Source: an uncultured delta proteobacterium
Lineage (GTDB): Bacteria; Desulfobacterota; Zymogenia; Zymogenales; Zymogenaceae
Direction of reading: 5' to 3'
NCBI GenBank assembly: GCA_963792965.1
Contig: CAWBYW010000016.1
Location: 115,925-179,924 of the forward strand
DNA: 64,000 nucleotides
In this document: piece by piece, positions 7,163-49,409 of the stretch
Position numbering within the stretch: position 1 is the stretch's first letter
Layout of the letters: every line of letters begins with the position of its first letter
Notes under the pieces: model-generated
Seen by the model: the letters and a program-made list of their open reading frames with translations, nothing else
Database searches by the model: none
What the model was told of the DNA's origin: nothing
Translations under genes and position numbers: made by a program

Positions 7163-7313
7163 TGGTATGACTCCCTCCACTGAGATAGACCGCTGGACCG
7201 GACGGACACAAACGGTCCGTCTGCGGCGCACGGGTGAGTGGCATACGGTCAGCCGGGCCGCATGAGCACACGGCCCATCGCGTCCGCGCGGCGCACCGTG
7301 CCCGAAAGTATCT

Positions 7314-10300: not shown

Positions 10301-10836
10301 GACGCCAGGAGTTTTCCTATCTTGATATATGCCTCGGTATAGTCAGGCTTGATGTCGACGGCCCGATTGTAGGCCTCAAGCGCCCCGTCGCGGTCGCCCG
10401 CGCCCGCCAGCGCATCGCCAAGGTAGTTGTAGGCAATGAACGAATCGCCGACGATATCGACGGCCTTTTTCAGCGGGTCCGTGGCCTCATCAAACCGTTT
10501 GTCCTCGAGGTAGGTCTTGCCGAGGTTGAAAAAAGCCTCGAAGAACTTCGGGTCAATGGTGACGGCCTCCCGGAAGGCCCGGGTAGCATTCTCGTGATCT
10601 CCCATCGCGAGGTAGACGAGTCCGATCTTATTCTCCGGGCGGGGATCACCGGGGGTGAGGCGGTAGGCGGTTTCAAATTCCTTGAGGGCTTCCTGATACT
10701 CGGCGTTGTTCAGGTAAAAATCGCCCTGGCTCATGGCCGAGAGGAACTCGGTATCGTCGGTCTGGCCCACGAGAGGAGGGACTAGGGAAAGAAGAAGCAT
10801 CACACACAAGGCGCACATCCAAACGGTTCGTTTCAT
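7314..10836 (-). pseudogene. giant periplasmic TPR-repeat protein (about 1170 aa), split by two frameshifts (near 9250 and 9740)
   Basis: Three consecutive ORFs (9652-10881, 8999-9700, 7314-9053) are all TPR repeats. The junk tail of each is continued by real TPR sequence in the next frame (...SAIVAY / LKKAIDTDPKY and ...EAVALDS / HHYLAYDELG). Signal peptide MKRTVWMCALCVMLLLSLV. The start ATG at 10836 overlaps the stop of the upstream gene (ATGA). Confidence 0.7.
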
Positions 10837-13625: not shown

Positions 13626-13705
13626 CGGATAGATCCTCGCCCCGGCCCGATACGGCCTCAGTTCATCGTCGAACATCACCGATAGATGATCTCGTGTTCC
13701 CCGTG

Positions 13706-14275
13706 CTATAACCCGAGCTCCCCCGCAATCGTCCCCATCGCCTCGATGCTGAGGGTGACGAACTCCTCAAGCGGTATCCCGATCTCCTCACAGAGCCTGA
13801 TCCCCTCGCGGCTGACGGACCTGGCGAAACCCTTCTCTTTCATCCGCTTGACGACGGAGGAGGGTTTCACCTGGGCGATCTTCTTGTCCGGCTGCACGAG
13901 GGCCGTGGCCACAATCAGCCCGGTGATATTTTCCGCGGCGGTGAGGGCGAAATGGAACGTGTCGGTGCGGGAAATCCCAAGGGCCTCGGCGTTGTGGCTC
14001 TTGATCGCCTCGATGATCTCGGGGCTTACCCCCTTTTCGACGAGGATCTTTTCAGTCTCGAGTCCGTGGCGCTCGGGGGTATCCTTGGTCGTCGCGTAGT
14101 CAAGGTCGTGAAGCAGGCCCGCGACTCCCCATACCTCGGGGTCTTTTCCGAACCGCGCCGCAAGCCGCCTCATGATCGCCTCGGTGGCCAGGCTGTGCTT
14201 GATCAGGGCCTGATCCGTGACTTTTTCTTTCACGAGCGCCCACGCCTCGTCTCTTGTTACCGTGCGGCCGCTCAT
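13706..14275 (-). CDS. HD/HDIG domain metal-dependent phosphohydrolase
   Basis: H...HD motif (LLHDLDY), about 190 aa, typical HDIG architecture. Confidence 0.8.
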   Translation of the reverse strand: MSGRTVTRDEAWALVKEKVTDQALIKHSLATEAIMRRLAARFGKDPEVWGVAGLLHDLDYATTKDTPERHGLETEKILVEKGVSPEIIEAIKSHNAEALGISRTDTFHFALTAAENITGLIVATALVQPDKKIAQVKPSSVVKRMKEKGFARSVSREGIRLCEEIGIPLEEFVTLSIEAMGTIAGELGL

Positions 14276-14733
14276 CGATATCGATTCTCCTTTTCCGTTC
14301 TTTTTTGTTTGTCTTCCAGCATCTTTGCCGTACAGTAGGTGTCGGCCAGCTCACAGGCCTTCGTAATGTCGGCATCGGCCTTATCGGCAAGCCCCATCAT
14401 GTTGTAGCAGCCGCCCCGCTGGTAGAGGGCCTCGGCGTCGTTCGGGTAAAAGCCCAATACCATGGAGAAATCATCCGAGGCCTCTTTCCATTTGAAAAGC
14501 TTTTTATAAGAGAGCCCCCGGTTGAAATAGACGGTCGACAGATCGATCCCCTCTGTCGTTGTGCCGGAAGATGCCGCCTCGATTACGCTCGTCCACAGCT
14601 CGATCGCAGTCCCATAGTCGCCCCTTCTGAAGTGCCGCTGGGCATCGTCATTGACATCTTTAACGCTGGCGGCCGCGGCTATCGAGGCCGCCAGCGAGAG
14701 GATCAGAAGAGAAACACATACGCGCTTTTTCAT
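14272..14733 (-). CDS. small secreted TPR-like protein
   Basis: Signal peptide MKKRVCVSLLILSLAASIAAA followed by TPR-like helical pairs. 4-bp overlap with the HD gene. Confidence 0.5.
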   Translation of the reverse strand: MKKRVCVSLLILSLAASIAAAASVKDVNDDAQRHFRRGDYGTAIELWTSVIEAASSGTTTEGIDLSTVYFNRGLSYKKLFKWKEASDDFSMVLGFYPNDAEALYQRGGCYNMMGLADKADADITKACELADTYCTAKMLEDKQKRTEKENRYR

Positions 14734-15026
14734 GCTCTGCACCCGCATCGGTAAGATCGGCCTTCTCCCCGGCAATATCTGGTAGTTATCCACAATAATA
14801 TACACAACATGTGGATAGAATAGCGAAAAACAGGGGAAAATTGTTACTTATCATGATGATACGCTGAAATTGTTTTATGATACTGTATTGTGAGAGTATA
14901 GTCAAGCTTTTCCCTTGACGATGACTCCTGCTTATGATATTTAATTATATTTATACACACGGCACTGTTCGGTCTGACACACGGCGTGCGGTATCTTTTC
15001 GGGCCGACGGCTCGATGGGGTCAACG

Positions 15027-33932: not shown

Positions 33933-34580
33933 TCAGGGCAACCGTTCCCCCCGCGTGGACGCCCGGCCCTGCCCCCCGATAACCTTTACCGCCTCCTCAT
34001 AGGCCAGCACATACCCCCACCGATTTTTCTCCCTGTCCGTCCGCTCCGAAAGGAGCGCGTCGATCTCGCCGGTGTTCCGGGTGACGGGCTTGGGTCCCGA
34101 AAGGCCCTTTTTCAACGCGTCGATCTCGCCGGCATAGTAGACCGCGAGTCCCTCCGAAAACCAGAGCGGCACGTGGGTGCCGAAACGAAGCCGGAGAAGC
34201 GCGAGACACACCTCATGGGCGACGGTCGACTTCAACACCCCGCGCTCTTTCAGGACGTTCACCGGCTGCAGGTAGATCGATCCGTCGATCATCGCCGAGG
34301 CCGACCAGAACGGCAGCCTCGTCTGGGCCGTGAAATCTCCGGTCTCCTTGAAGATCACCACGTCGATGGGACGGCCCGCGCCGCTCCCAACCCTCGTTTC
34401 CATCGCGGTGTATGCCGATTCGAGGGCGTCCTTTACCTCCGAGAGCTCGCCGGCCCGAAGGGTCTCGGCGAAATAGATATTGAAATGCCGTGTCTGGGTC
34501 TGGGCAAAGTCAAGGGCGCCTGCCTCTCGGCTGATGACGAGAAGAAGGCACGAGATCAGAAATAGGAACGGTCTTCTCAA
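33933..34580 (-). CDS. secreted hypothetical protein
   Basis: Signal peptide MRRPFLFLISCLLLVISREAGA. No confident family. 4-bp overlap with the PBP gene. Confidence 0.45.
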   Translation of the reverse strand: MRRPFLFLISCLLLVISREAGALDFAQTQTRHFNIYFAETLRAGELSEVKDALESAYTAMETRVGSGAGRPIDVVIFKETGDFTAQTRLPFWSASAMIDGSIYLQPVNVLKERGVLKSTVAHEVCLALLRLRFGTHVPLWFSEGLAVYYAGEIDALKKGLSGPKPVTRNTGEIDALLSERTDREKNRWGYVLAYEEAVKVIGGQGRASTRGERLP

Positions 34581-35605
34581 TCCGTATGCACGCCTCCGAA
34601 ATAGACGCGGAAAACCTCCCGGGCCACCGGCGCGGCATCCTCACCCCCCCGGCCGTGGTAGAGGAAGACGACCACGGCGATCTCGGGGTTCTCGGCGGGG
34701 GCAAAACCCAAGAACCAGGCGTGAGTCGCCCAGCTGGAGCCGAGGAACTCGCCGGTGCCGGTTTTGCCCATAATCTCGTGCCCGTCCGGCGTCCCCTTGA
34801 CGGCGGTTCCGTACGCCGCCGCATCGCGCATTCCCTCGGCGAGGATCGGCGCCGCGCGGGAAACCTCTACCTTCCTGTTGAGTCTCGGCGAAAATGAACC
34901 GATATCGTCTGCGGTGGGGGTCACGCGGGGAACCCAGATACTGCCCCCGTTCACGAGGGCCGAAAGATTCACGATCACCTGAAGGGGCGTCGCCGTGACG
35001 TTGTCGGTGTCTCCGATGACATACTCACGGGCAAACGCCGGCTCGGGGGGGATGAGCCTTCCCGCCTCCTCCTGTGGAAGGTTGACCCCGGTCTTTTCTC
35101 CAAACCCGAGCTCGGAAAGCCCCCGGTAGGTGGTGTCGGCGCCCAGCGTCTCGGCAAGGGAAAGGAAATAGAGATTACACGAGTAGGCGATCCCGCGGAC
35201 AAGGTTGAGATCACCGTGTCCGGGGGGGTACCAGCAATCGTATTTCGTTCCCGATATAACGGCACTCCCGGTACACCTGAAGCGAGCGTCGGGAGAGATA
35301 CGCTTCTCTTCGATCCCTTTCCAGACGCTCACAAGCTTGACGAGCGAGCCGGGGGGAAAGGCCCAGCGTGTCGCCATGTCGGGCCCCACCATCGCTCTGA
35401 TGCGTCCCGTCTTCACGTCCATGACGACGACCGCCCCGGTCCGGCCCGCCAGGGCGTCGGATGCCGCGCTTTCGAGGAGGGCGTCGCCTTTCAACACCTG
35501 TTCCGGGCCCGGCCTGCAACCCGAGGCGAAGAGAAATAAAAGGGCGACCCCCCCGATGAGGGGTCGCCGAAAGAGTAAACGAATCCGCCGCCGGATCCCC
35601 GTCAT
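34577..35605 (-). CDS. penicillin-binding protein, transpeptidase domain only (lipoprotein)
   Basis: SxxK (SLVK), SxN (SCN) and KTG (KTGT) motifs. Lipobox LFASGC. ATGA overlap with the upstream macroglobulin gene. Confidence 0.75.
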   Translation of the reverse strand: MTGIRRRIRLLFRRPLIGGVALLFLFASGCRPGPEQVLKGDALLESAASDALAGRTGAVVVMDVKTGRIRAMVGPDMATRWAFPPGSLVKLVSVWKGIEEKRISPDARFRCTGSAVISGTKYDCWYPPGHGDLNLVRGIAYSCNLYFLSLAETLGADTTYRGLSELGFGEKTGVNLPQEEAGRLIPPEPAFAREYVIGDTDNVTATPLQVIVNLSALVNGGSIWVPRVTPTADDIGSFSPRLNRKVEVSRAAPILAEGMRDAAAYGTAVKGTPDGHEIMGKTGTGEFLGSSWATHAWFLGFAPAENPEIAVVVFLYHGRGGEDAAPVAREVFRVYFGGVHTD

Positions 35606-38600
35606 TTCCCCTCGGTGATGACAAGGCTTGAGCTTCCCGTCCTTCCGAAGCGGTCCGGGAAGTACATCAGGTACGCCTCGGCCGGCATGACACCGTAGGT
35701 CCCCGGGTTTTGGGCGCGGAGGATATACTTGAAGACATAGGTCCCCACGTCGACGTAGTCCATCGATAGAGCGATCCGCTCATCCCGGAATTCCCTTCCG
35801 GCAAACCACCAGTCCGCATCGCCGGTATAGAGATCGTCCCCGGAGATGACATAGTTTTTATCGTCGCTGATGGCCTCATAGCCCGCCGGGTAGTAGTCCT
35901 CCAGCAGGAAGTATTGGGCCTTCTTGTCGGTCGTGACCGAAAGCTCCACGAGGATCTCGTCCCCGCTACTGACCGGGCCGCTGAGCGGCACCTTCGCGTA
36001 GATGAGCTCTCCCTTCTTGGGCACCTTCTTGAGGAGGTAGTACTTTCTGCTCACGGCAAATCCGGCGTTCAGCGGGGCTATCGAGGGGGCCGCGCTGTAG
36101 TGCGTGAAGGTCGAGGAATAGTAGAGGCTACCCGGCCCGTCCTTCTTGATGACGATCGTATTGGGGCCGGTCTTGAGATCCCCTTCCTTGACGGTAATCG
36201 TTCCCCCCTCGGTGAGCATCGTCTCCTTGGTGATGTGGCTCTTCTTGAGCTGTTTGCCGTTGAGGGTAAGCGTCATGGTGTAGTTCGGCTTGATCTCCCC
36301 GGTCCGGGTGATGTAGTCCGTCAGGGCATAGATGATCTTCCCCGTGGCCTTGGTGGAGCGCCAGTAGCTTCCGGTCCGGTTGATGATAAGCCAGCGGATC
36401 GTCTTGGGGATGAGGGGATTATTGACGTCGCGCATGGCCATCACCCGCAAAACGTACGCGGTGGTCTCCAGGGGATCGGCCTCCCAGTCCCACCAATAGA
36501 AGTCCTCTCCGACGTAACCCCAGTGAACATAGCCGTTCTCCTGGATCTTTTCCTTCATGAGCAGGTCATACAGGACGTTGGCCTTCTCCCGGATCCCCTC
36601 GTTCTCGTAGGCCAACAGCAGCATCGCCTGAGAAATGGGGGTGAGCTTGTCGCGCTTCTCGAACATCTCGTCGAGCCACGCGGTCTTGAGCTTGTCCGTG
36701 TAGGACAAGACGTAGAGGGCGTAGACCTTGACGGAGTCCTGATCGATCTTGCTCAGCTGAGAGATGAGGGACGCGGTGCCGCGCTTGATGACGCCCTCGT
36801 CCACGGTGATGGGAATGCCTGCCTCGGGAAGGAGGCGTTTCGCTTCGAGGAGCCCGTACAACACGTAGGCGGTCATGTAGGGATCGGTCTCGTCGAACTC
36901 GTACCACCCCCAGCCGTTATCGTCGTGCTGCCGTTTGTAGAGCACCATGAGCCCGCTCTTGATGTAGGCGGGGAGGTCCTTCTCTACGCTCTTATCGGAA
37001 AGGTCAAGCTTCTTTAATACCGACGCGACCATGACTGATGGCAAGAACCTTGCCATTACCTGCTCGTTTCACCCATAGGGGTAGCCGACGAGGAATGGTA
37101 TAGCGGCAAGCATTGTGTTGACGAGCGATGGACTGGTGGTAATGGTGAGCTCAGCAGCGTTCTTTATCGTGTTGGCGGGCTTGTTGACCGTCACCGTGAG
37201 CGTCCCGGAGTCCTTGATGATCTCTCCCATATCGTTCTTTGTCTCTTTGATGCCGAGCGGGAGGATCGGCACCTTTATCTCCATTCCGTCGGAGACCTCG
37301 TTGGTCATCGCCTTTGCCGTGAGAACGGCACTTCCCACGAGGTCCGCCCTGACGTGCCAGTCGACGCGCTTCTCTCCGTTTTTCGGGACGATTGCATCGA
37401 CCGGAACGCCGGAAGCGAGCGTCAATCCCTTTGCGTCGAACGTGAAGTGCACCTTCTTGTCGGTCGACAGGTAATTATGGGCGATGGTGGAGATTACGAG
37501 GTCGTCCCCCTGGCGCAGAAATCGCGGCGCCTCTATGCGGACGAGTAAGTCCTTGCGCTCGATGACCCGGTAGGTAGTCTCCCCCATGCTGTCGCCCGTG
37601 GTCACCCCCCGGACCGTCGCACGCCAACGCGTCAGGTTGTCCGGGAAGGTGACGGTGACCGTGGCCATACCCTTTGCGTTGGTCGTGATCGTGGGCGACC
37701 AGTACATCGTGTCCTTGAAGTCCTTTCGGATCAGCGGTTGAACGAGCGTGTCTCCCTTGAAGTCGGCAAGCTTCGTCTCTTTTTCCGGAAGTCCCGCCAG
37801 GAGTCCTTTCCGGTGAGAGTATCCGTAAAAGCGGAAGTAGAGGGATGACGACGTGTCCACGGAATGATAGCGCAGCGAGTAGAAATACTTCTGGATTTCG
37901 TCGACAAGCTCCGGTGAGATGGCGTAGATGGCGTCGTCCACGACGCCGAGCGACACCTCTGCCGACACGGGTTTGCCTGTGCTGTCCGTCGTCTTTATCG
38001 TAAAGGTGCCCTTTTCTTGCGGCTCGTACGTCGCCTTATTGGAGGTCACCTCGACGTTGATGAACTTTTCGGTCGGTGGGATGATGATGTTCTTGCTGTC
38101 CGAATAGAGCTCATCGTTGAAGATCGCGGCAACCGAGAGGTAGATGTTGGGGGTGTATCTCTCCTTTATGGGGAGATCCAGCATCGCCGTGCCACCCGTG
38201 GCTTTGATGACTCGGCTATCAAGGATCGAGTCTCCCTCGGTGGTAATCAACAGATAGGTATCCTTCACCGGCGCGGCGATCAGGATGTGGGCGGTATCGC
38301 CCACCGCGTAGGTATCCTTGTCGGGGATAATCGTGACGCCGCCCTCCGACGTCCCGCCGTAGGCATACCCCTCCGTAAAGGAATACGATGAGTCCTTGGC
38401 CGTGGTGGAGTTGCCCGCGTTATCGAAGACCGTGGCGATGAAATTGACGTCGCCCACGTTTTTCACCGTATATTCGATGACGGCGTCCCCACCGGAGTTC
38501 GTCCTTCCCGAAAGGGTGGCCGAGCTCGTGACCTTGCCCCCCTGCCAGTCGGTCTCCGTGACGATGAGCGTCACCGGCACATTCGCCACACCCTTGTTGT

Positions 38601-40242
38601 CAAAGTCGGAGACGTTGACCGTGATCCGCGCCTTATCCCCCGGCGCGTAGACCCAGCGGTCGGGACGTAGCGAAACGGTGTAGTTTGACCGAACGACCTT
38701 GACGACGCTGCTGGTGGTAACCACCCGGCGCGAGAGATCGGTAACGTTGGCCTCGATGGTGAAGGTATAGTCGTTGTCGGGCGACTCAAGGTATTGCGAC
38801 GTGTCTACCGTGAGCCTGAGCTTCCCGGCGTTGTCGAGCATAGCCGTGCCACTGTCCACCATGACCTTCTCGGTGGCGGTCCAGTAGTCTTCGTCCATGA
38901 AGTACCAGCCCCAGTCGTACCCCCACCACCAGGGGCGCTCGTAGACCGACCGGTAGACCGTATAGTCCACCTTGGCCTCCGTTACGGGGCTGCCGAAGTA
39001 GTAGCCCGCCTCGATATCGGCCGTGATCGTGTCGCCCCGGATGTAGACGTTCTTATCCGTCCTGATCTTGACCTCGTATTCGGGCTTCTTGTACTCCTCC
39101 ACCTTGAAGCTGTTGTAGTAGTTCTGTCCATTCAGTCCCACGACGATCTGATATTCGCCGAGCGAGGGCTCCTCTCCGAGGGTGAAGTCCCCCGAGAGGC
39201 TCCCGTACTTATTAATCTTATAGTTGTTCCGGAAGACCTCGTCGCCCTTGGCGTCGTCGATGATGACCAGGTAGTCGTCGCCGGTGTCGGGAACCTTCAG
39301 CCCCGAGTCGGTGGCGTTTCTCAGGATCGAGCGAAAATGCACCGTGTCGCCGGGACGGTAGACGGGTCGGTCGGTGTAGGTGTAGACCTTGTCGCTTGCT
39401 TCCCCTTCCCCGTAGGCATAGGGGTCGGCCAGGGTGAAGTTCTCGCCGTCCTGGGCGAAGACATAGATGACGTCACTCTCGGTCGCTTTCACCTTGGAGT
39501 AGTAGATCCCGTCGGAGTCCGTCTTCCCCTTGAAGAGGAGTTTTTTCTGGTTGTCGTAGACCGATACCTTAACGCCTTTCATCGGTTTGCCGGTTACCCG
39601 GTCGGCCACGTAGATAAGGCTGTCGGTGCTCGAGTTCTTCACGACAAACGACATGGGGGTAACGACGACCATCGTATAGGCCACCGAATCCTCAAAGACC
39701 GCCTCGACGAGGTAGCACCCCGGTTTCGGGACTTTGACGTCTATGTTGTGGTACTCCCACTGTCCACTGCCCGAGATGACCAACTTCTCCTGCCAGCGGT
39801 TGAGGAGCTTGAACTGGGTCAGGATCGGGAAGAGCTCGTAGGTCTGTGGCGCGGGTGAGACGGGCTCCTGGGCGTGCGGCAGGCCGAGTGCCGAGACGAC
39901 ATCGTCTCGGATGTTGTCGGAGAGTTTTGAGCGATAGTCGTCCCGGAAGAGTTCTACCCCCTTCCGTTTGATCGCCCCAACCATCTCGGCGGGGGCCGAT
40001 GTCCCCCGTTTCGTCGTCACCACCGGCGAGTGGACGTCATCGAGCCCGAGGAAGTACGATTTCGGATCGTCTACCCGGTAGAGCCGGATATCGAGGGACG
40101 GGACATCCATGGAGGAAACGGTGACGGTGACGGGCTCCCCCGGAGCGAAGATCTTGTCCGTGGAGAGCTCAAAGGAGCCTGCGAGCGTCACGGCCGGCAG
40201 TGTTAAGAGCAATACGATCGAAAGAATAAGGGACTTTTTCAT
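35602..40242 (-). CDS. alpha-2-macroglobulin family thioester-type protein (1547 codons) with an in-frame TGA at the thioester cysteine codon (37069-37071)
   Basis: ORFs 37069-40254 and 35602-37056 are in the same frame, separated only by TGA. The context GYPYG-[TGA]-NEQVMARFLPSVMVASVL aligns with PYG-C-GEQNMVLFAPNIYVL of macroglobulins. Downstream motif DDNGWGWYEF...TAYVLYGLLEA matches the thioester domain. Signal peptide present. Start ATG at 40242 is preceded by GAGGGA. Confidence 0.8.
37038..37056 (-). promoter_or_regulatory. stem-loop 12 nt downstream of the in-frame UGA (candidate bacterial SECIS)
   Basis: mRNA reads UGA AAC GAG CAG GUA then AUGGCAAG-GUU-CUUGCCAU, a perfect 8-bp stem with a GUU apical loop. 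The loop begins 20 nt after the UGA. Confidence 0.35.
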
Positions 40243-40485
40243 AGTTTCCCTCAAAGAATGGAGTATATCGTTGTTTGGTCTGTCACCGTGAGAGTGCGCG
40301 GCGACCGCGGCAATCCCCGGCTGTCGTTACCGATACGGAGGTAATAAGGATCCTTCCTCGAGAATCAGGGCTCGCCTCGTTGTGCCACATCGCCTGGCCT
40401 CCCACGATTCGGGCAGGAACGTTCCCCTGCAATGACCGAGAAGAGCTCCCACGATACTTTGGACCTCAAAAGCACCTATAAAGCT

Positions 40486-41583
40486 TTAGTTCAGTATCTT
40501 GAACCGATAATAACCCAAAAAATGGTCGTTCTCTCTTACCGGCCGCCAGCGCTCGTCCGGATGCACTTTGAGCGTGGCGAGCCTGACCTTCCTCACGTCC
40601 CCGTTATCGTGGGAGCGCGGGCCGGTGTGATAGACGAGCCAATCTTCGTTTACGTCCGAATCGCTCTCCTTTCCCCACTCGCCGAGGTAGATCATCATAT
40701 GGGAGGGCATCCGGGGGTTTTCCGGGTTGAAGAAAAAGAGGAGATCACCGGGAAGAATACCCTTCTCGGTTCGCCCGAGGAACACGACGTTGTACTGAAG
40801 CAGCGCCTCGGCCGATGCCGCCGCAGAAAAGTTGACGCCGATATCGGAAGGGACAAACGGCCCCGGCGCCGTCCGAAAGACATCGACTCCCAGCAGCGGC
40901 ACGTGGGGATAGGTGTACTTCTTCACGTCGGGATTTGCGGGGCTGACCAGCGTCGCGTAGGAGGAAAAGAAAGCGTCGTCGTGGCGCTTGAGCGCCTCGA
41001 CATAGGCAAAACGCACAAGCCCCGCACAGTCCCGGTTGATCTGGTCCCAGTGGCGGTTCTTCTCGTAGACTTGAGATTCCGCGATGGCGCAGAGCCACCG
41101 CCGGAAGTTGAGGCGGTCTGTGTCGCCGAAGAGCTCCACCACATCGGGAAACCCGTCCCCGTCCCGGTCACGCATGTCGGGGATAACATTCACCTGTGCC
41201 CGGGCAGGCGCCACCCCCGGAGACTCGGCCCGGATCGTGAGGTCACCCGTCTCGAAGGTCGAGATGAGCGTGAGGGAGGCCGTTCCGCGGACAAACGCGA
41301 GCGGTCCTGTTTCCACCCTTGTCGTCGCCGGGCCGACAAGCGTCACCGTAAGGGGTGCGCCGCAGCCGCGCGCAACATTCCCCCTGTCGGTCTTTGCAAG
41401 GATCGTGATCTCCACGGTATCTTCCTTGTTGGCCCAGAGCGTCTGCTTTGACACGGCGATCTCGATGCTTTTGGCCTTTGCGCACGACGTGATCAAACAG
41501 GCCAACAGGAGCGTCGAAAGGATCGCCGCTCCGCCTTTAATCCAGGTCCTTGACCCTGATCTTAAACCCGCCTTGAATTGCAT
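40486..41583 (-). CDS. DUF1175 (YfaT)-like lipoprotein with papain/NlpC-P60-like Cys-His core
   Basis: Lipoprotein signal (LLLACLITSC). DCAGLVRFAY resembles the NlpC/P60 catalytic Cys context and HMMIYLGEWG the His context. Immediately upstream of the macroglobulin gene, as yfaT is in yfaS loci. Confidence 0.5.
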   Translation of the reverse strand: MQFKAGLRSGSRTWIKGGAAILSTLLLACLITSCAKAKSIEIAVSKQTLWANKEDTVEITILAKTDRGNVARGCGAPLTVTLVGPATTRVETGPLAFVRGTASLTLISTFETGDLTIRAESPGVAPARAQVNVIPDMRDRDGDGFPDVVELFGDTDRLNFRRWLCAIAESQVYEKNRHWDQINRDCAGLVRFAYVEALKRHDDAFFSSYATLVSPANPDVKKYTYPHVPLLGVDVFRTAPGPFVPSDIGVNFSAAASAEALLQYNVVFLGRTEKGILPGDLLFFFNPENPRMPSHMMIYLGEWGKESDSDVNEDWLVYHTGPRSHDNGDVRKVRLATLKVHPDERWRPVRENDHFLGYYRFKILN

Positions 41584-43280
41584 CACCGCTGAAGTTGACC
41601 CCCCCGTAGCATGAGACAAAAGATCTTCTGGTCAGTTCCACGAGCGGCACGAGCCGCTTTTCCGAATCCTGGTAGAGAAAGTATTTATAGTTTGCCGAGA
41701 TGTTGACGAGATAACCCTCGATCAACGACATGGCGTTGTTCCCGTCTACGTAGAGATAGAGGTCGTAGGCGTCTTTCGGCATGTCTTTTTGCGCCGAGAT
41801 GAACGCGGGCGACTTCACGAGAAAATCGCGGTCAAAAAGGCCGCCCGCCCCCGTCATCGAGGAAATAACAGAGAGGTCGTTGAGCTGCTCCATCGTCGAA
41901 AGGTCCCAGAAGAGGAAGAGCCTGTCATCCTTGAGCGCAAAACCAGGATTAGGCTTGACGGAGGCGACGTACGACGTCCCGTTCCAATCGAGGCTCTTTT
42001 CCCTGAACTGGCCCATATAGGAGATGTGAGCGGCGTCAAGCTCGAGGGGAGACGGGCCCGCATCTGAAGAATGAATAGCTGTAGAGCTTGCCGATATTGG
42101 TGGAAAGGGCCTCTTCTTTGCCCGGTGCCACCCCAACGGAGGCGATCGTCCTGAGGTACGGTTTTTCTCCCTCATACCCGATCCCGACGAGGGCCGCCAG
42201 CGCCCCCCTGCCGAGGTTGTTGATGATTCCACCCTCCAGGTCGAATCCGCCCTTGTCCTTCCATTTTTTCAGGATCGAGATGTAGTTTACCTTTTGGGCG
42301 ATGTCGGTAAACCAGACCTTCCCGAAATGGGTATAAAGGATGCCGGGGTCGAAGGCCCGAAACGCCACGAGCGCCGCCGTCTCGCCGGGCATCGCCGATA
42401 GGTCTATTGTCGCCTTATCGGAGAGCGACCCCAGCCCCGCCAGGAGGCTTTTCCCCTCGCCCCCGGTGTAGGGGGCAAAGAGCGTGATATCCGCGCCGGC
42501 CTCGGAAAAGGTGACCGAGAAAAGGAGCGCGTCCGTCCCCTTGAGAAGCCGTCTGGCATGGGCGACGATGCCCATCTCGGAGTCATCGGGGCTCATCGCC
42601 TTCGTTGAATAGAAAAGGATATGGTAGTCCTTTGGCAGGTGGGAGAGCCGATCCATGACGGCGGGGTTTCCGGAGAGGTTCTTTGGGTTTTGCCCCGTAA
42701 CGATGTCCCACTCGGATTTGAAGAGATCGGGGGAGTCGGAGACGATCGTATAGCCTTTGACGTTCTTGTAATAGATCTTCTTGTCTGTGCTCGCGACAAC
42801 CCAGACGGAATAGGAGCCCCAGTTTTCCTTCGTCACGTGGCTCGAAAAGATCGAAAAGAGGTTGATGAGAAAACCCTTAAACCAGCCCGTCTCAAGCAGC
42901 GCCGCCGAGGCCTCCTTTCCCTCGAGGGTCGTCCGATAGAAGACGGCCCGCGCACCTATGACCCACAGGAAGCGTTTCAGGGTCGGGCGAATCCCGGTCA
43001 TCTTCTCGATAGTCCCGAGCCTGGAGAGCATCGGGGCCGAGAGGTCGCTCTTGATCGGGCCCTCAAAGAGCGAAAGATCGCCGACTTCATCAAAATAATC
43101 GCTTGAGAGCAACGGCCTCAATCCTGCCCTGAGGTCCCTGAGGTAGACGAAGGAGTCTACGTTCTCCGGGATGATCTGATAGAGCTCGTAGGCGTCTCCG
43201 GCCACGGCACTAAGGGCCCCAAGCGAAAGGGCCGCGATAACGACCGCGCCGATCAGACATGCCCTGATCTTAGATCTCAT
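41537..43280 (-). CDS. large secreted protein, DUF2138 (YfaA)-like, one frameshift near 42045
   Basis: ORF 42036-43322 has a signal peptide and about 410 aa of real sequence. It continues in ORF 41537-42232 in another frame. Removing one C from a C4 run restores ...KLYSYSFFRCGPVSLELDAAHISYMGQF. Family call rests on size and locus context only. Confidence 0.4.
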
Positions 43281-43299
43281 GAATCCCTCCTTTTCTCCG

Positions 43300-43890
43300 C
43301 TATCGGCCGATGGGGCCCGCAAATGACTCGGGATCGGCCCCCGCCCGGAGGATCGTATTGTAGTACCTCAGCGTGACGATGTGAATCACCCGCTCGCGCA
43401 TAGTATCGGGGGTCGCCTTCATGAGAGCGGGGAGGTCCTTGTAGAAATCCTTCAGCGACTCGTTCACGTCGCTCTTCATCTCGGGCGTCGGCGCGCCGGC
43501 ACGACCGAGGCCCGGAGGTTCTTGTATTCGTCCCACTCGGCGTCAAGGATGACGTCCAGCGCGTCTCCCACGGCACCTGTGTCCGTCCCGCCGGGCTGGC
43601 TGTAGTCCGTACCCGACGGCGTCTCGGAGACCGTGGGAGGCACAAGCATCCTGGTCCCGGGCGGCGGCGATCATCTCCCACTCGTGGCGAGGGACGTCCG
43701 GATCTCGCTTTTGCGGCTTGGGATAGCCCGCCTTGATCTGATCGATCGCAAGGGTAACGTCGGCAAAGACCCCCCCGACCTTCGGACCCTTCTCTCCGGG
43801 CGCGGGCGCCTTTTTTTCGCAGGCCCACGAGAAGATCAAGAGAAACGAGAGGAGCCCAAGAATCGGCCAGAGCAGTCCCGGTCGGGCGCT
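43300..43890 (-). pseudogene. small lipoprotein-like hypothetical gene with two frameshifts and no canonical start
   Basis: Signal-like RKRRDGLSARPGLLWPILGLLSFLLIFSWAC. The frame begins directly after the upstream TGA. The body switches frames near 43620 and 43510 (...ARDQD / LVPPTVSETPSGTDYS...DEYKNLRASVVPA / TPEMKSDVNESLKDFYK...). Confidence 0.3.
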
Positions 43891-43911
43891 CAGTCCGTCC
43901 CGCCGTTTCCG

Positions 43912-44779
43912 TCAGGATCGGCCGAGCGCCGAGAGGATCTCGGCCAGCGCCCGATCCGAGCGATACGTATTGGTCTTGATGTTCCATCCCTTCTCCTTCA
44001 AACCGATTAAGAGCTGGGTAACCTCGGGCAGAAACGGCCTCACGCCGTCGAGCGCCGCCCGGTCGGAAAAGAGTTCTTCCGGGGTGCTGTCTAGTTTGAT
44101 CTTCCCCTTCTCGATAACGACGATCCGGTCGGCCACCCGGATGATTTCTTCCATGTCATGGGAGATGATGATGACGGTCTTGTTCTTGGCGTTGAGGGCC
44201 TTGATGTGCCGGATGGTCTCGGTCCTCGACTGGGGATCAAGTCCCTGGGTGGGCTCGTCGAATATGAGTATGGGAGGATCCATAGCGAGGATCGAGGCGA
44301 TGGCGACCTTGCGCTGCTCACCGCCGGAAAGGGTGAACGGCGAGCGCGTCCTGAGCCGGTCGATGTCAAGGTTGACGAGGCCTGCCGCATCACGACACTC
44401 GCCTTTCGACCTCCTCTTTCGAAAAACCCCCTCGGTTGACGAGGGAAAACGCGATCTCTTTCTCGACCGTCTCCTCAAAGAGCTGGTGCTCGGGATACTG
44501 AAAGACGAGCCCTACCATTTCCCGCAGCCTGCCGGTCTTCTTGGTGGCGGGCGTCAGGTCAAAATCACCGACGCGGACGCTCCCCTTCGCGGGCGTCAGC
44601 AGTCCGTTGAGGTGCAGCGCCAGCGTCGTCTTCCCCGAGCCGGTGCGCCCGATCAGCGCGACGAACTGGCCCTCCTCGATCGAGAGGTTCACCCCCGAGA
44701 GCGCCTCCTTTTCCAGCGGCGTATTGGGGAAAAAGACATGCGAGAGGTCTTTTATCTCGATGAGCGGTGCGGTCGTCAT
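43912..44779 (-). CDS. ABC ATPase of the EcfA/CbiO type, one frameshift near 44420
   Basis: N-terminal half (44390-44779) has Walker A GRTGSGKTTL. C-terminal half (43912-44478) has LSGGEQRKVAIASILAMDPPILIFDEPTQGLD. The two halves are in different frames. No EcfT partner gene is adjacent. Confidence 0.65.
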
Positions 44780-45033
44780 GAGACTTTGTAGACCATGTCG
44801 CCCGGCCGAACCCTGTCTTTGATCTTGATCCCCACGAGTGCGCCTGACGCGACCTCGGTTACCGGGGCGTTGTCGATCTGCATCGACTCCACCACTTCCG
44901 TGAAATCGGTCGTCGCACCCTTGAAGCGGAGCTCGTCCCCAACCTTGAGGGAGCCCTCGACCTTTATGGCGGCAACCGACGGCTTGGCAAAGAACTTGAT
45001 GACCTCTCCGATTTTTACCTCACTTGACATCAC
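44776..45033 (-). CDS. small (85 aa) EF-Tu/SelB domain II-like beta-barrel protein
   Basis: IGEVIKFF...VAAIKVEGSLKVGDELRFKG...ASGALVGIKIKDRVRPGDMVYKV resembles domain II of translational GTPases. ATGA overlap with the ATPase gene. Immediately downstream of selA, where selB normally sits. Confidence 0.5.
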   Translation of the reverse strand: MMSSEVKIGEVIKFFAKPSVAAIKVEGSLKVGDELRFKGATTDFTEVVESMQIDNAPVTEVASGALVGIKIKDRVRPGDMVYKVS

Positions 45034-45072
45034 ACTCCTCCTCCCGTGGTAGTCAGCATGATCTATCCTTAT

Positions 45073-46500
45073 TCATTCCCTTCTCATGGCCGACAGGATT
45101 CCGTTTGCGAGGTCCGTGACCTCCCTCTCCAGGACGGTTCGAGGATCGATGACGAGGCTCTCGTCCGAGATTCGTGCGATAATGGTCGGATGCTTGCGTC
45201 CTCAAGCGTCTCTCGAGCGCCTCGGGGCTCTCGGCCAGCGGAGCAATCGTTACCACCCTTGTCGGGATCTGTGCGGTGGGAAATGCCCCGCCGCCCACTC
45301 CCGAGAAGTCATCGGCGGTCGTGACGTGGAACTTCGGATGGGGCGTGGCCGCCAGCAGCTTCACGATCCTTTTGGCCCTTTTCTTCGTCTCGTCATAGGA
45401 CATCGTAATCATCGCCAGGACCGGGATCTTTTTTCGCGCATCAAACGGGTCCCGATAAATCATCAGGGTCGATTCGACGGCGGCAAGCGACAGCTTATCG
45501 ATCCTCACGGCCCGCGCCAGTGGGTTCTTTTTAATGCGGTCCGATCGGGTCCGCCTCCCCTACGATGAACCCCGCCTGGGCACCGCCCAACAGCTTATCG
45601 CCCGAAAAACGTAATGACATCGACGCCCGATTTAATCACTTCCGAGACGGTCGGCTCATGGGGGAGGCCCCAGGGCCCGAGATCCATGAGCGAGCCGCTG
45701 CCGAGGTCCTCCATGACCGGGATGTCATATTTTTTCCCGAGCCCGACGAGCTCGGCGGTCGACACTTCCTCGGTGAACCCGACGATCCGGTAATTGGAGG
45801 TGTGGACCTTGAGGAGGAGCGCGTCTGGCCGACCCGATGGCGCTCTCGTAGTCCGAAAGCCCTCGTCCGGTTCGTCGTGCCGACCTCTCTGAGGCGCGCG
45901 CCGCTCTTTTCCATGACATCCGGGATACTAAAAGCGCCGCCGATCTCCACCAGCTCTCCCCGTGAGACGATGACGTCCCTGCCGTCGGCAAGAGTATTGA
46001 GCGCAAGCAACACGGCCGCGGCGTTGTTGTTGACCGCAAGGCCCGCCTCCGCGGAGGTGATATGGGCGATCAGGTCGGAAACGTGGTCGTGGCGGGATCC
46101 CCGCTCTCCGCGCTCGACGTTGAATTCGAGATTGGAATAGCCCGAGGCGATGCGTACGATATGCTCGAGGGCCTCCGCGGCGAGGGGCGCGCGGCCGAGG
46201 TTTGTATGCAAGATAATCCCCGTGGCGTTGATGACGGGCGCAAGCTGACGGCGTGACCGATTTGATCAGCCACTGCTCGATGAGCGACAAGAGCTCCGGC
46301 TCCGAGACTTCGGCGGGATGCTCTTTGGACATGAGCTCTTTTCGCGCGGACAAAATGGCGCCTCTCACCGCCTCCTTTACCACCATCCTCGGAAAGCGCC
46401 TCGATAGTTCCGTGACCATGGGGTGAGCCAGCAGCTTATCCACCGCGGGGAGTTTGGCGAGAGGGGATTTTTGTGCCGGGTTTTCCGACTTTCTTGGCAT
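45073..46500 (-). pseudogene. selA: L-seryl-tRNA(Sec) selenium transferase (selenocysteine synthase) SelA, with at least 6 frameshifts as assembled
   Basis: Pieces match SelA along its whole length across frames. N-terminal [34 protein letters not shown]...[11 protein letters not shown]...[11 protein letters not shown]...[35 protein letters not shown]. Then [20 protein letters not shown]...ITF / [16 protein letters not shown] / RIDKLSLAAVESTLMIY. C-terminal PTIIARISDESLVIDPRTVLE...SAMRRE*. Breaks are near 46245, 45880, 45845, 45625, 45575 and 45185. Confidence 0.8.
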
Positions 46501-46787
46501 GGCGCCGCTCGAGATTTTTTCCATCTATACCATACTTTGACGGATTTCTCAAGGAAAATAAGGCTCTATGGGCGACGAACCTGACCCTCCCGCGCGGTTC
46601 TCAGTTCGGAAATGGAGATTTTGACCCTCAGGCGAGCGAAGGGCTCGGGGGGCCGAGCCCCGCCAAGACAAACGATTCCGCCGCTCATTATCTGACGGTA
46701 AAGGTAACTGAAGTCAGCTCCGCTCCACCCGAATCGGAGCCGTTCATGCGCAGGTCGTAGCTTCCGGGGGTCGTCGGGCCACAAGGC

Positions 46788-47792
46788 TTATAAATCCTCA
46801 ATTTCTTTAACCAGACTTCGGTCCAGCCGCGCCCCGTGGCTTGCCACCACCTGGGCGGAGATGTAGGCCGCGATCCTGCCGGCCCTCTCCATGTCTATTC
46901 CGTGCGTGACCCCGTAGAGGATTCCCGCCGCGTAGGCGTCCCCCGCCCCGTTGGTGTTGACGACCCGGACGGGGTAAATCGGCACCCTGATGACACGGTC
47001 GTCGGCCTTGATGAGGCTTCCCCGCTGCCCGAGCTTGACGACGGCCAGATCGCACAGCTCGTATATCAGAGACAGCGCCTGTTCCTCGTCATCCTTTCCG
47101 GTGAACGCCCTGGCTTCAAGCTCATTGACGAAAATGATATCGGCGTATTCCTTGACAAGGTCGCGGATCGGCTCAAGGTTCCTTCCGATGAGGGCGGGGT
47201 CGGCAAGATCGATGGAGACCCGTCCCCCCGACTCATGCGCGATTTTCATCGCGTGGACGCAGGTCTCCCTCAACAGGGGGTCCTCCAGCTGGTACCCCTC
47301 AATATGAAGGGTCTTGCTCTCCCTGATGTCCTCATCAAGGATATCTTCCTTCCTGAAATGGATTGCCGCGCCCAGATGCGTGGCAAACGTCCGCTCGGAA
47401 TCCGGGGTAATGAAGGTGATAGCGTGGCCGGTGCCTGCGGACTTGTGCCTGGAGAGCTTGGATGCGACCCCGTCTACGATCGTCCTCTGCTCATAGACCG
47501 TCCCGTGGTAGTCGTCGCCGATCTTGCCGAGGAAGACGGCGCTCCCCCCGAGGGCGCTGACGCCGGCCAGGGTGTTGGCCGATGAGCCCCCCGGGGCGGT
47601 CTTTACCGTGTAGCTCTCCAGCATCTTGAGGATCTTGGTGCTCTGGGCTTCGTCTATCAGGTGCATCTCGCCCTTCTTCATATCGATCTCGGCCAGCACT
47701 CCCTCGTCCACCTCGACGATGAAATCCAACAGCGGGCTCCCGATTCCGCAGACATCGTATCGCTTCACCGAATGTTCCTCAGGCTTCATCAT
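46788..47792 (-). CDS. PfkB-family carbohydrate/nucleoside kinase (ribokinase or adenosine kinase-like)
   Basis: Intact 334 aa. N-terminal GSPLLD...GGSSANT and C-terminal NTNGAGDAYAAG motifs are typical of PfkB kinases. Confidence 0.8.
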   Translation of the reverse strand: MMKPEEHSVKRYDVCGIGSPLLDFIVEVDEGVLAEIDMKKGEMHLIDEAQSTKILKMLESYTVKTAPGGSSANTLAGVSALGGSAVFLGKIGDDYHGTVYEQRTIVDGVASKLSRHKSAGTGHAITFITPDSERTFATHLGAAIHFRKEDILDEDIRESKTLHIEGYQLEDPLLRETCVHAMKIAHESGGRVSIDLADPALIGRNLEPIRDLVKEYADIIFVNELEARAFTGKDDEEQALSLIYELCDLAVVKLGQRGSLIKADDRVIRVPIYPVRVVNTNGAGDAYAAGILYGVTHGIDMERAGRIAAYISAQVVASHGARLDRSLVKEIEDL

Positions 47793-47832
47793 CGCCCCAC
47801 CGATACTCTATTACTGTGCATTCCGTCACACT

Positions 47833-49409
47833 CTACCGTCCGAGCAGGAGGCGACCGATAATCGACCGGATCGTCTCGTCATCACGCCCGGTCGAGTCGA
47901 CGCCGAGGGAATCGGGCCTCTCCGATGCGTCGAGTGGCTCGCGGAGCAGCTTTTGCTTCAGGTAGACCTCAAAGGTCGCGTCCGACGCGTTTTTCTCCTT
48001 CATCCGCTTGGCAATCCTTCTCTTGACCACGTCGTCCGGGCACGTGACGGCAACTATAAGGAAACGCGCCCCGGTCTTTTCGGCGACGCTCTTTGCCTCC
48101 TGCCTCTCTTTGTGCTTGAGGAAGCATGCGTCCAGGATCACGGATCGGTTGGCCCCGAGCGCTTTTTCGGCGCGCGCATACAGGGTAGCGTAGGTTTTCC
48201 TGGTCATCGTGGTCGAGTAGATCCCGGATCCGAAACGGTCGTAGTGGTGAGCCAGAGGGCTTTGCCCCGCCAGCTCCTTTCTCACCTCGTCGGAGCGATA
48301 GACAATGCTGTCCATTTCGTCGGCAAGATCGTCGGCGATTCGGCTCTTGCCCGTCCCGGCAAGGCCGAACATGATGATCAAGAACGGGCGCGTCTCCCTC
48401 ACCGCATAGTGATGGGCAAGGTGAAAATAGCCCCGGGCCCGCCCGGCCGCCTCTTCTTTTTCTTCTGAGTCGATCTCCGCCTCTCCCAGCTCGAAGCTCA
48501 GCACCTTTCCCCGGGTAAAGGCGTGGTAGCAGGCGTAAAAGTCTATCAGCTCGCCGAGCCGTGTGTCCCCCGAGAGCCGCACATATTCTTCGACGAAGAA
48601 GCGCGGCAAGTCCCGGATACCTGAAGGAGTCCAGATCCATCTTGAGAAAGGCGATATCCTGGGCCACGTCCCCCATCCGGAATCGCTCGTTGAACTCGAT
48701 GCAGTCATAGATATAGATATCCTTTGTGGTGATGCAGATGTTTCTCGAGTGGAGGTCTCCGTGCCCCTCCCTGATAAACCCGCCCGCGACCCTCTCCTCC
48801 AAGAGGTCGGCCTTCTCCCTGAAGAAGCGCTCGGTATAGTCCTTGATCGTCTCAAAGTCGAGGGGCGGTATCGTCTTTGAGATATACTTTTTCGTCTGGT
48901 TGAAGTTCTCGTCGCAGTTGAGCCCGATCACAGGGATCGTCCCGTATCGGTTGACGTGCTGGCCCGTGCGCGCGGCGCGGTAAAACGGGACGAGGACCCC
49001 GACTATCCGCGCGATGTCGCCTCTCCCGACCTTCCCCGCGGCAAGCCCCACGTCCATCATCCCCCGCGCCGGGAGCCGCCTCATCACGACGGCGAAGTCT
49101 ATGACGGTGCCCGCGCCCTCTGACCGCGATGCGTGTCCCGTCATCCGTAATCGGCACCACGCCGAGATAGACATCGGGGCAGAGCCGCGCGTTGAGCGCG
49201 ACTTCCTGCTCGCAGTAGAACTTACGCTTTTCCAGCGTGGTGAAATCGAGGAATCCGAAGTCCACCGGCTTCTTGATCTTGTAGACGAGGTCGCCGGCGA
49301 TAAATACGACCGAGATATGGGTCTGGATGACCTCGGCCCGCTTGGGCCAGTGGGGAAAGCTCCCGGGCTTGCTGAGCGACTCGATGAGCGCCGTCAGGGG
49401 CATGGACAA
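47833..49409 (-). pseudogene. APH-like phosphotransferase domain fused to a P-loop NTPase/kinase domain, two frameshifts (near 49135 and 48615)
   Basis: N-lobe in ORF 48852-49409. Catalytic loop GHGDLHSRN and [11 protein letters not shown] in ORF 47969-49174. C-terminal P-loop GLAGTGKS in ORF 47833-48855. Confidence 0.55.

Follow-up and report, generated by a model that had tools for sequence, protein, structure and literature searches.

A candidate selenocysteine at the thioester position of a bacterial alpha-2-macroglobulin

Type I bacterial alpha-2-macroglobulins (A2Ms), such as ECAM/YfhM and SaA2M, contain a series of MG domains, a bait region, an A2M domain, a thioester domain (TED), and MG10; their reactive motif reads AYPYG-C-LEQ, and a penicillin-binding-protein (PBP) gene has been described directly downstream (PMC5764988). 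The Type II protein MagD of P. aeruginosa, from the magABCDEF system, is without CxEQ and traps proteases non-covalently. The macroglobulin gene analyzed here is located in a 64-kb stretch of DNA, referred to as the window. It shares with Type I the domain series, the position of the reactive motif (GYPYG-U-NEQ), and the downstream PBP gene (34577..35605, minus strand), which overlaps the macroglobulin stop and encodes about 340 aa. In contrast to Type I, a UGA, predicted to encode selenocysteine (Sec), replaces the thioester Cys, the signal peptide has no lipobox Cys, and the neighboring PBP, where a PBP1c-type protein would be expected for Type I, has the transpeptidase domain only; no transglycosylase domain was detected in it. 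A further difference is the MagC/DUF1175 gene directly upstream (40486..41619, minus strand), a marker of Type II operons. Both adjacencies are conserved. With the MagD system the locus shares a macroglobulin beside MagC/DUF1175 and other conserved periplasmic partners; however, x-E-Q is kept with Sec, a PBP gene lies downstream, and MagC is the sole recognizable mag homolog nearby. The C-x-E-Q of Type I proteins is thus U-N-E-Q in this gene, and the protein would work in a Type I-like manner only if Sec stands in for Cys.

The complete macroglobulin frame (35602..40242, minus strand) encodes 1546 residues, with the predicted Sec as residue 1058. Translation of 35602-40254 (minus strand) is interrupted internally by one stop, which stands between AAIPFLVGYPYG and NEQVMARFLPSVMV; this is the TGA at 37071..37069, and the true terminator is another TGA at 35604..35602. 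The claim of an earlier note, written from the letters of the window, that one TGA is the only break in this frame was confirmed. The N-terminal 1057 codons (37072..40242, minus strand), comprising the MG domains and the bait region, are a separate 1057-aa protein (P0001) in the public annotation. The C-terminal 488 codons (35605..37068, minus strand), with the remainder of the thioester domain and MG10, would be translated only if the UGA is decoded.

Pfam matches in the N-terminal part are bMG3, MG2, bMG5, A2M_BRD, and A2M, and those in the C-terminal part are TED_complement and bMG10, so that the MG-domain series, bait region, TED, and C-terminal MG10 of the Type I architecture are all present. 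The N-terminus is a signal peptide (MKKSLILSIVLLLTLPAVTLAG/S), and the protein is predicted not to be a lipoprotein, since this peptide has no lipobox Cys. The AF2 model of P0128, a Cys homolog with 72% identity, has a pLDDT of 85.7. Its C-terminal part matches native ECAM (4ziu), SaA2M (4u48), and CD109, and the Foldseek E-values of the P0128 model against 4ziu, 4u48, and 5a42 are between 4e-25 and 5e-22.

The internal UGA (37069..37071, minus strand), the predicted Sec codon, gives U-N-E-Q where the homologs have C-x-E-Q. In alignments its counterpart is the PYGCGEQ Cys of CD109 and TEP1 and the AYPYGCLEQ Cys of the Salmonella A2M (4u48) and E. coli YfhM (4ziu); about 75 homologous loci have TGC or TGT at the equivalent codon. 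These alignments agree with the earlier assignment of the UGA to the thioester Cys. The search of related genomes proposed at that time returned loci with either TGA or TGC/TGT at this codon: 14 distinct loci carry TGA. The codon is TGA in L002, L004, L005-7, L013, L093-96, L098-100, L015, L104, and L102/3. These include two further lineages, one from candidate division KSB1 (L015, L104) and one formed by L102/L103. In at least 13 independent assemblies, built from short or long reads, of relatives with 58-92% identity, the frame beyond the TGA is open and conserved. At the protein level, 11 clusters with 58-100% identity all terminate at ...GYPYG; public annotation systematically cuts these TGA macroglobulin genes into two "proteins". 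Three fragments proposed as TGA splits, the C-terminal P0148 and P0150 (both starting MSSFLP) and P0229, were rejected as contig-edge fragments.

Between 483 and 511 open codons follow the UGA in each lineage. The dN/dS values over the 488 downstream codons are 0.07-0.25, as against 0.10-0.23 upstream, with dS ranging from 0.5 to saturation. The two sides are thus under equal purifying selection, which indicates that the region downstream of the UGA is translated.

A predicted SECIS hairpin (37038..37056, minus strand) lies beyond a 12-nt spacer (37068..37057, AACGAGCAGGUA). Its perfect 8-bp stem pairs AUGGCAAG (37056..37049) with CUUGCCAU (37045..37038), and the apical loop GUU (37048..37046) begins at nucleotide 21 after the UGA (+21 to +23). 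RNAfold recovers the hairpin at -16.6 kcal/mol (62 nt) and at -9.8 kcal/mol for the 30-nt core, so that the position, stem, and loop given before were reproduced by both the sequence and the folding. The bSECIS model comprises a loop of 3-9 nt, a stem of 4-16 bp, G in loop position 1-2, a spacing of 16-37 nt, and a minimum free energy of at most -7.5 kcal/mol (PMC13188914). The loop GUU, the 8 bp, the 20-nt spacing, and the core energy of -9.8 kcal/mol all lie within these published bacterial limits, as the earlier note had held for the layout. No SECIS-type match was found in Rfam, either in a scan of the window at the gathering threshold or in a permissive scan of 36950-37120.

The hairpin by itself is modestly unusual (z = -2.1, with equally good folds in 7 of 200 shuffles), and many Cys-type homologs of other phyla are as stable over the same 30-nt stretch. 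We rejected hairpin energy as a discriminator between Sec and Cys forms, as Cys homologs from GC-rich genomes fold equally well or better over 30 nt. Because the energy is only modestly unusual and is shared by many Cys homologs, the weight of the evidence lies with the comparative data and not with the folding energy.

To find invariant runs, we scanned the whole gene without bias across eight full-length TGA forms. Of the invariant runs in the 4.66-kb alignment, the longest has 35 nt, and its first nucleotide is that of the UGA; the runner-up has 14 nt. This block, TGAAACGAGCAGGTAATGGCAAGGTTCTTGCCATC (37037..37071, minus strand), consists of the UGA and the predicted SECIS, and is invariant in all TGA-type orthologs of the clade. 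All nine degenerate codons of the block are identical in 10 sequences, compared with 9.7% elsewhere (P about 7e-10). The hairpin is composed of the rare codons GTA, GCA, AGG, TTG, and CCA, which make up 6-19% of their own codon families in the genes of the window.

The Cys forms L001 (TGT) and L097/P0002 (TGC) belong, as nested members, to two different subclades. The sequence GTG ATG TCG CGS TTC CTG CCG, present in both, destroys the hairpin; over the nested Cys forms L001, L097, and L014, 5-6 of 10 codons are changed and the hairpin is lost. Conservation of the hairpin, which the earlier note had named as a check, thus follows the UGA: within the clade it is nucleotide-invariant in the TGA forms and gone in the nested Cys forms. 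Among the matches listed by a metagenome scan, which the widespread EEYKKPE pattern saturated, most were distant Cys forms that served as a Cys background, and one was L015.

In the KSB1 loci L015 and L104, the TGA is accompanied by a hairpin GCAG/GUUU/CUGC in the same register. The longest identical run between these two loci is 44 nt and spans the hairpin. Alone, this hairpin is weak (4 bp plus a mismatch, -5.4 kcal/mol for the core) and marginal relative to the bSECIS energy. L014, the Cys twin of the KSB1 loci, has CGU/UUG where the TGA forms have AGG/CUG. In L102/L103 the TGA is accompanied by AUGGGCA/AGUUUC/UGCCCAU, and the L102 hairpin lies within the bSECIS limits, with 7 bp, the loop AGUUUC, and -11.2 kcal/mol. 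Each of the three lineages has G-U-U at +21 to +23. Strict compensatory covariation was not obtained among these sequences: the window's clade shows no variation, and the registers of pairing are slightly shifted (1 nt) among the three lineages. The coding sequence for M-x-R/K-F-L-P is intrinsically close to a SECIS hairpin, which may have helped the exchange between Cys and Sec.

The gene for selenocysteine synthase, selA, was said to lie upstream on the same strand and was found at 45056..46524 (minus strand), 4.8-6.3 kb upstream of the point where the macroglobulin starts and 8-9.5 kb away from the UGA. The assembly of the window spreads it over four or more frames. If this frameshifting is real and not assembly noise, the organism would be unable to make Sec. 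An intact selA of 482-487 aa occupies the syntenic position in the short-read assemblies of L093, L095, and L097, and selA is found upstream in nine related loci. Frameshift-type disruptions also affect three more genes between 41.5 and 49.4 kb of the window (an ABC ATPase, a 587-aa ORF, and a KTI12-like gene), and the frameshift sites of the window are not obviously homopolymers. No gene for tRNA-Sec was detected, whether in the 64-kb window or among 12 related loci, and neither selB nor selD was seen in the Pfam annotation of the window or in the fetched flanks. Among the other in-frame TGA read-throughs of the window, nothing was comparable; the mechanical list consists mostly of spurious GC-rich ORFs.

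The disrupted genes of the window and the two separate proteins of the public annotation would fit a pseudogene, in which a change from TGC or TGT to TGA killed the gene and left the downstream frame as a decaying remnant. However, the same TGA is present in at least 13 assemblies, in proteins down to 58% identity and in two more lineages. Moreover, the 488 downstream codons are intact with dN/dS equal to upstream (0.07-0.25, though dS is at or near saturation), and the 35-nt block is invariant only in TGA forms. The nonsense-inactivated gene that the earlier note kept as its alternative is effectively refuted by these observations, and we regard it as extremely unlikely. A sequencing or assembly artefact hiding a true TGC or TGT might be suspected from the error-prone assembly of the window, with its many indels, and from the indels in the macroglobulin genes of the sister long-read MAG loci L005-L007. 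Its probability appears next to negligible, as the errors seen are indels and not substitutions, and the identical TGA occurs in independent short-read assemblies (JGI, ENA, Logan, and NCBI). Judged from these comparisons, the TGA is neither an error nor a pseudogene lesion.

Gene callers place start codons soon after the stop (P0121-P0135), the codon after the UGA is GUG in lineages 2 and 3, and protease trapping by Type II bacterial A2Ms needs no thioester (PMC5764988). These points would suit a split gene, in which translation stops at the UGA and re-initiates at AUG 37056 (in the other lineages at the GUG beside the UGA). A 115-kDa MG-domain protein and a 54-kDa TED-MG10 protein would then assemble without a thioester-type bond, and the hairpin would serve coupling or re-initiation. 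We consider this very unlikely. The break falls exactly at the Cys codon in three lineages, and the close Cys relatives are single polypeptides. The codons between UGA and AUG appear to be translated, since their amino acids stay N/V-E-Q while CAA and CAG vary between lineages; the E-Q would be purposeless without a Cys or Sec partner. In the window's clade no start codon stands beside the UGA. The AUG at 37056 is inside the stem and the sole possible ribosome-binding site is an AGG 2 nt upstream of it; the earlier note had seen no credible site of its own for the downstream piece. Read-through by other means than Sec is likewise improbable, be it near-cognate Trp, Cys carried on tRNA(Sec) in selenium scarcity, or a lineage-specific suppressor. 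The frameshifted selA of this assembly speaks for it, as does the fact that selB, selC, and selD were not observed in the window, flanks, or related loci. Against it, the code does not appear to be reassigned, because TGA ends the macroglobulin and neighboring genes in the normal way, and Trp would abolish the reactive bond, yet E-Q is conserved. The interchange of Cys and UGA, together with a UGA-only SECIS-type hairpin and selA, is an established selenoprotein signature (PMC13188914).

The gene is therefore best read, and with high probability, as a genuine selenoprotein gene for a secreted Type-I-like bacterial alpha-2-macroglobulin of about 170 kDa in which Sec replaces the thioester Cys. 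The conserved UGA, the selection on the downstream frame, the UGA-specific constraint on the hairpin, and the nearby selA all support the candidate selenocysteine-containing thioester protein first proposed from the window, and the fold and architecture are those of an A2M. Sec insertion at the UGA is strongly supported by this comparative signal. A single mRNA would encode the whole macroglobulin. When the ribosome arrives at the UGA (37071..37069), the hairpin 12 nt beyond it would act as a bacterial SECIS and recruit SelB with Sec-tRNA(Sec). Insertion of Sec would let translation proceed into the rest of the thioester domain and MG10. In the exported, folded protein, an internal gamma-glutamyl selenoester would form when the selenol attacks the amide in the side chain of the Gln three positions later (U-N-E-Q); we infer this Sec-Gln bond from the conserved U-x-E-Q motif. 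Cleavage of the bait region by a protease would expose the selenoester, and attack by a lysine of the protease would cross-link it, with the selenolate as a better leaving group than a thiolate. Selenoesters outdo thioesters as acyl donors in aminolysis (PMC7232547), and a kinetic advantage would mean that proteases are captured covalently faster, compared with the rate of hydrolysis.

To our knowledge, Sec outside redox proteins otherwise acts as a metal ligand, and no natural protein has been described as forming a selenoester. We lean slightly toward a broader proposal, in which Sec acts here as a non-redox acyl carrier, giving the first natural protein selenoester and a faster warhead in the periplasmic protease trap of anaerobes. 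Exchanges between Cys and Sec would have recurred at this site, in a minimum of two and perhaps three or four lineages of macroglobulins. The UGA macroglobulin would define a selenoprotein family of its own, a new one, in which selenium probably has a non-redox role. If true, a Sec in place of the thioester Cys would add acyl transfer to the biological chemistry of selenium, and the bacterial selenoproteome would gain an exported member of about 170 kDa. A natural Cys/Sec pair of macroglobulins would help in asking why Sec is ever preferred, and the well-defined 35-nt SECIS would enlarge the training material of SECIS and selenoprotein predictors by a new type of sequence. No NCBIfam model covers this protein.

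Compared with the eukaryotic thioester proteins (A2M, C3/C4, CD109, and insect TEP1), PYG-C-x-EQ aligns residue by residue and the TED-centered fold matches with Foldseek E-values of 1e-22 to 1e-25; however, the known members have Cys, and none with Sec appeared in the literature searched. The selenoproteome literature searched likewise contains no mention of a Sec-containing macroglobulin, in accord with the earlier opinion that such a protein is undescribed. With genes that have an in-frame SECIS, of which E. coli fdhF is the archetype, the locus shares the UGA at the Cys site of its homologs and a stem-loop just downstream inside the ORF, with an apical G-U about 20 nt from the UGA. It also shares Sec and Cys forms interleaved in the tree and selA in the genome. 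The SECIS of E. coli fdhF has a bulged U; the hairpin of the window is a triloop without one. Whereas the bacterial selenoprotein families described so far are mainly redox proteins (PMC9312934), the predicted Sec of this macroglobulin would lie in the acyl-transfer (thioester-type) warhead of an exported protease trap.

Translation of the macroglobulin region (40254..35602, minus strand) gave a frame that is uninterrupted apart from one internal stop, a TGA at 37071..37069 (minus strand) lying between AAIPFLVGYPYG and NEQVMARFLPSVMV. Pfam places bMG3, MG2, bMG5, the bait-region domain and A2M 5' of this codon, and the thioester domain (TED) and bMG10 3' of it. In alignments, the TGA coincides with the Cys of PYG-C-GEQ in CD109 and TEP1, and of AYPYG-C-LEQ in the solved SaA2M (4u48) and YfhM/ECAM (4ziu). 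Translation and alignment thus agree with the earlier note, which had reported a single TGA at the thioester Cys and whose observation was correct in all details checked. The protein begins with a signal peptide, which lacks a lipobox Cys.

The full-length macroglobulin, with Cys put in for the stop, was used as query for homologues. Eleven protein clusters of 1057-1063 aa (58-100% identity) end in GYPYG, all eleven spanning exactly the first 68% of the query; the same query also matched a 1555-aa form with GYPYGCNEQ. The C-terminal piece as query retrieved the corresponding "second halves" (476-486 aa). Homologous DNA was drawn from GTDB genomes, JGI and ENA metagenomes, and Logan assemblies. 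Among the orthologous loci, hosted by Candidatus Zymogenaceae and related Thermodesulfobacteriota MAGs, the codon proposed for checking is TGA in L002, L004, L005-7, L013, L093-96, and L098-100, TGT in L001, and TGC in L097.

The macroglobulin gene's own terminator is TGA in the window, L002, L004, L093, and L100; these organisms thus use TGA as a normal stop codon, which rules out a reassigned genetic code. In every clean assembly, the 488 codons following the UGA form an open frame, and their dN/dS (0.07-0.25) is indistinguishable from that of the 1057 upstream codons (0.10-0.23), at synonymous divergences from 0.5 to saturation. A decaying pseudogene remnant is therefore excluded. SelB/SECIS-dependent insertion of selenocysteine at residue 1058, by which the UGA would be decoded to give a full-length exported macroglobulin, is strongly supported.

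Twelve nt past the UGA, AUGGCAAG pairs with CUUGCCAU over 8 bp without a mismatch, around a GUU loop (37056..37038, minus strand). This hairpin, described in the earlier note, was confirmed in the sequence and recovered by RNAfold (-16.6 kcal/mol for 62 nt, z = -2.1 versus shuffles). Its conservation was scanned in a codon alignment of eight full-length TGA forms, which spans 4.66 kb and is invariant at 34% of its nucleotide columns. No run of unchanged nucleotides is longer than the 35 nt that begin exactly at the UGA (TGAAACGAGCAGGTAATGGCAAGGTTCTTGCCATC); the second-longest, 14 nt, lies in a Trp-rich stretch. At amino-acid-invariant degenerate codons, codon identity is 9/9 within the 35-nt block versus 9.7% elsewhere (P about 7e-10). 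The block uses GTA, GCA, AGG, TTG, and CCA, which make up 7%, 10%, 19%, 8%, and 6% of their codon families in the window's genes. The two Cys forms belong to separate subclades (L001 inside a 79-87% group; L097 close to L095 and L099, at 84-86% identity). In each, the sequence is GTG ATG TCG CGS TTC CTG CCG, with the hairpin gone and Ala changed to Ser. Such loss is the behaviour expected of a putative SECIS made dispensable by a Cys codon in place of UGA.

The bacterial SECIS consensus in a 2026 review (PMC13188914) has an apical loop of 3-9 nt, a stem of 4-16 bp, an MFE of at most -7.5 kcal/mol, a G within the first two loop positions (most often with G or U next), and a UGA-to-loop distance of 16-37 nt. 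The window hairpin (GUU loop, 8 bp, 20 nt, core -9.8 kcal/mol) falls within all of these limits, as the earlier note had proposed for its layout. The hairpin of L102, from another lineage, also does; that of candidate division KSB1 is marginal on energy. Hairpin energy alone, in 30-nt folds, did not separate Sec from Cys forms. We found no strict compensatory covariation in the hairpin and no matching Rfam family. Many Cys-type macroglobulin genes of other phyla (L016-L092) are as stably folded here as the Sec forms, with hairpins of -10 to -18 kcal/mol in the 30 nt at +10..+39 past the thioester Cys codon; sequences encoding M-x-R/K-F-L-P may be predisposed to hairpins. At the SECIS position of Cys-type genes, the sequence encoding T-M-S-S-F-L-P-D-V is intrinsically palindromic, and this may favour SECIS birth at the thioester site.

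TGA forms also occur in other lineages. The KSB1 loci L015 and L104 carry TGA with an upper stem GCAG/CUGC and loop GUUU; their proteins are 69% identical, yet the longest identical DNA run, 44 nt, lies across the UGA and hairpin. Their Cys twin, L014, has CGU and UUG in place of AGG and CUG. Three KSB1 proteins (P0156, P0166, P0170) end in GYPYG amid many full-length Cys forms. In the L102/L103 lineage (protein P0191), the TGA is followed by 483 open codons, with AUGGGCA/UGCCCAU enclosing the loop AGUUUC. G-U-U occupies +21 to +23 after the UGA in all three lineages. A fourth may be represented by P0320, a 1090-aa representative known from protein alone, which shares about 34% identity with the N-terminal piece in the window and ends exactly in ...LATYPFG, the thioester position. 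Sec and Cys forms are interleaved in the neighbour-joining macroglobulin tree, which implies repeated exchange of Sec and Cys.

The claim that selA lies upstream on the same strand held as to position (45056-46524, minus strand), but the gene is in four frame fragments, spanning Pfam SelA positions 1-126, 137-211, and 225-346 plus the N-terminal domain. Relative to the short-read locus L093, frameshifts at 41540-49403 (minus strand) affect selA (at least three), an ABC ATPase (43918-44764), a 587-aa ORF homologue (41540-43280), and a KTI12/AAA-like gene (47839-49403), all on the minus strand; none were found in 33-41.5 kb of the window. The sites show no obvious homopolymers, and the cluster reflects either uneven assembly quality or real decay. 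We provisionally read the selA frameshifts as assembly noise, because the three nearby genes are also frameshifted and sister long-read MAG loci have indels within the macroglobulin gene itself. At the syntenic position, the short-read assemblies L093, L095, and L097 each carry an unbroken selA of 482-487 aa. In nine related loci, both Cys forms included, selA is found upstream, about 5 kb from the macroglobulin gene. No selB, selD, or tRNA-Sec was found within the window or the flanks of related loci. A small ORF of 84-98 aa directly downstream of selA is kept in all relatives (window 44779-45072, minus strand; L093 5395-5649; L095 5115-5375); its match to EF-Tu domain 2 is weak and sub-threshold, and it falls short of a full SelB.

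Elsewhere in the window, a 765-aa ORF (4974-7271, minus strand) combines PNP_UDP_1 phosphorylase and amidohydrolase domains in one protein, perhaps a fusion for nucleoside salvage; beside it lies another amidohydrolase gene (2672-3985). Four TPR-rich ORFs (579, 409, 948, and 177 aa) form a run at 7314-14805 (minus strand), flanking an HD-domain gene.

E-Q is retained in every Sec form and lineage, and selenoesters are more reactive acyl donors in aminolysis (PMC7232547). From these two points we infer that the selenol and the Gln of U-N-E-Q would form a gamma-glutamyl selenoester, which after bait cleavage would acylate a protease lysine. P0128 is the C-terminal piece of a Cys form and shares 72% identity with its counterpart in the window; its AlphaFold2 model (pLDDT 85.7) matched native ECAM (4ziu, E = 4e-25), A2ML1, CD109, and SaA2M at TM 0.63-0.68, and protease-activated forms more poorly (TM 0.38-0.43).

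In full-text literature searches, no report connected macroglobulin or thioester to selenocysteine or selenoprotein. The term "macroglobulin" does not occur in the main text of the two prokaryotic selenoproteome reviews of 2022 and 2026 or of the deep-Sep and Olavius-symbiont papers, nor in the main text, as distinct from the family table, of the BSepDB paper. We regard the macroglobulin as a thioester protein in which Sec would occupy the thioester position, putatively decoded by the already known bacterial Sec system.

The conserved gene order is selA, the small ORF, the ABC ATPase, two unknown genes, MagC/DUF1175, macroglobulin, and a PBP transpeptidase. The PBP is about 340 aa, transpeptidase only, with no transglycosylase domain; L102 keeps MagC and has no PBP. 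Type I bacterial macroglobulins are marked by a CxEQ-type motif and an adjacent PBP, and Type II by a mag-operon gene (PMC5764988). The window operon (34577-41619, minus strand), like those of L093, L095, and L097, mixes the Type I CxEQ-type motif and PBP with the Type II MagC/DUF1175.
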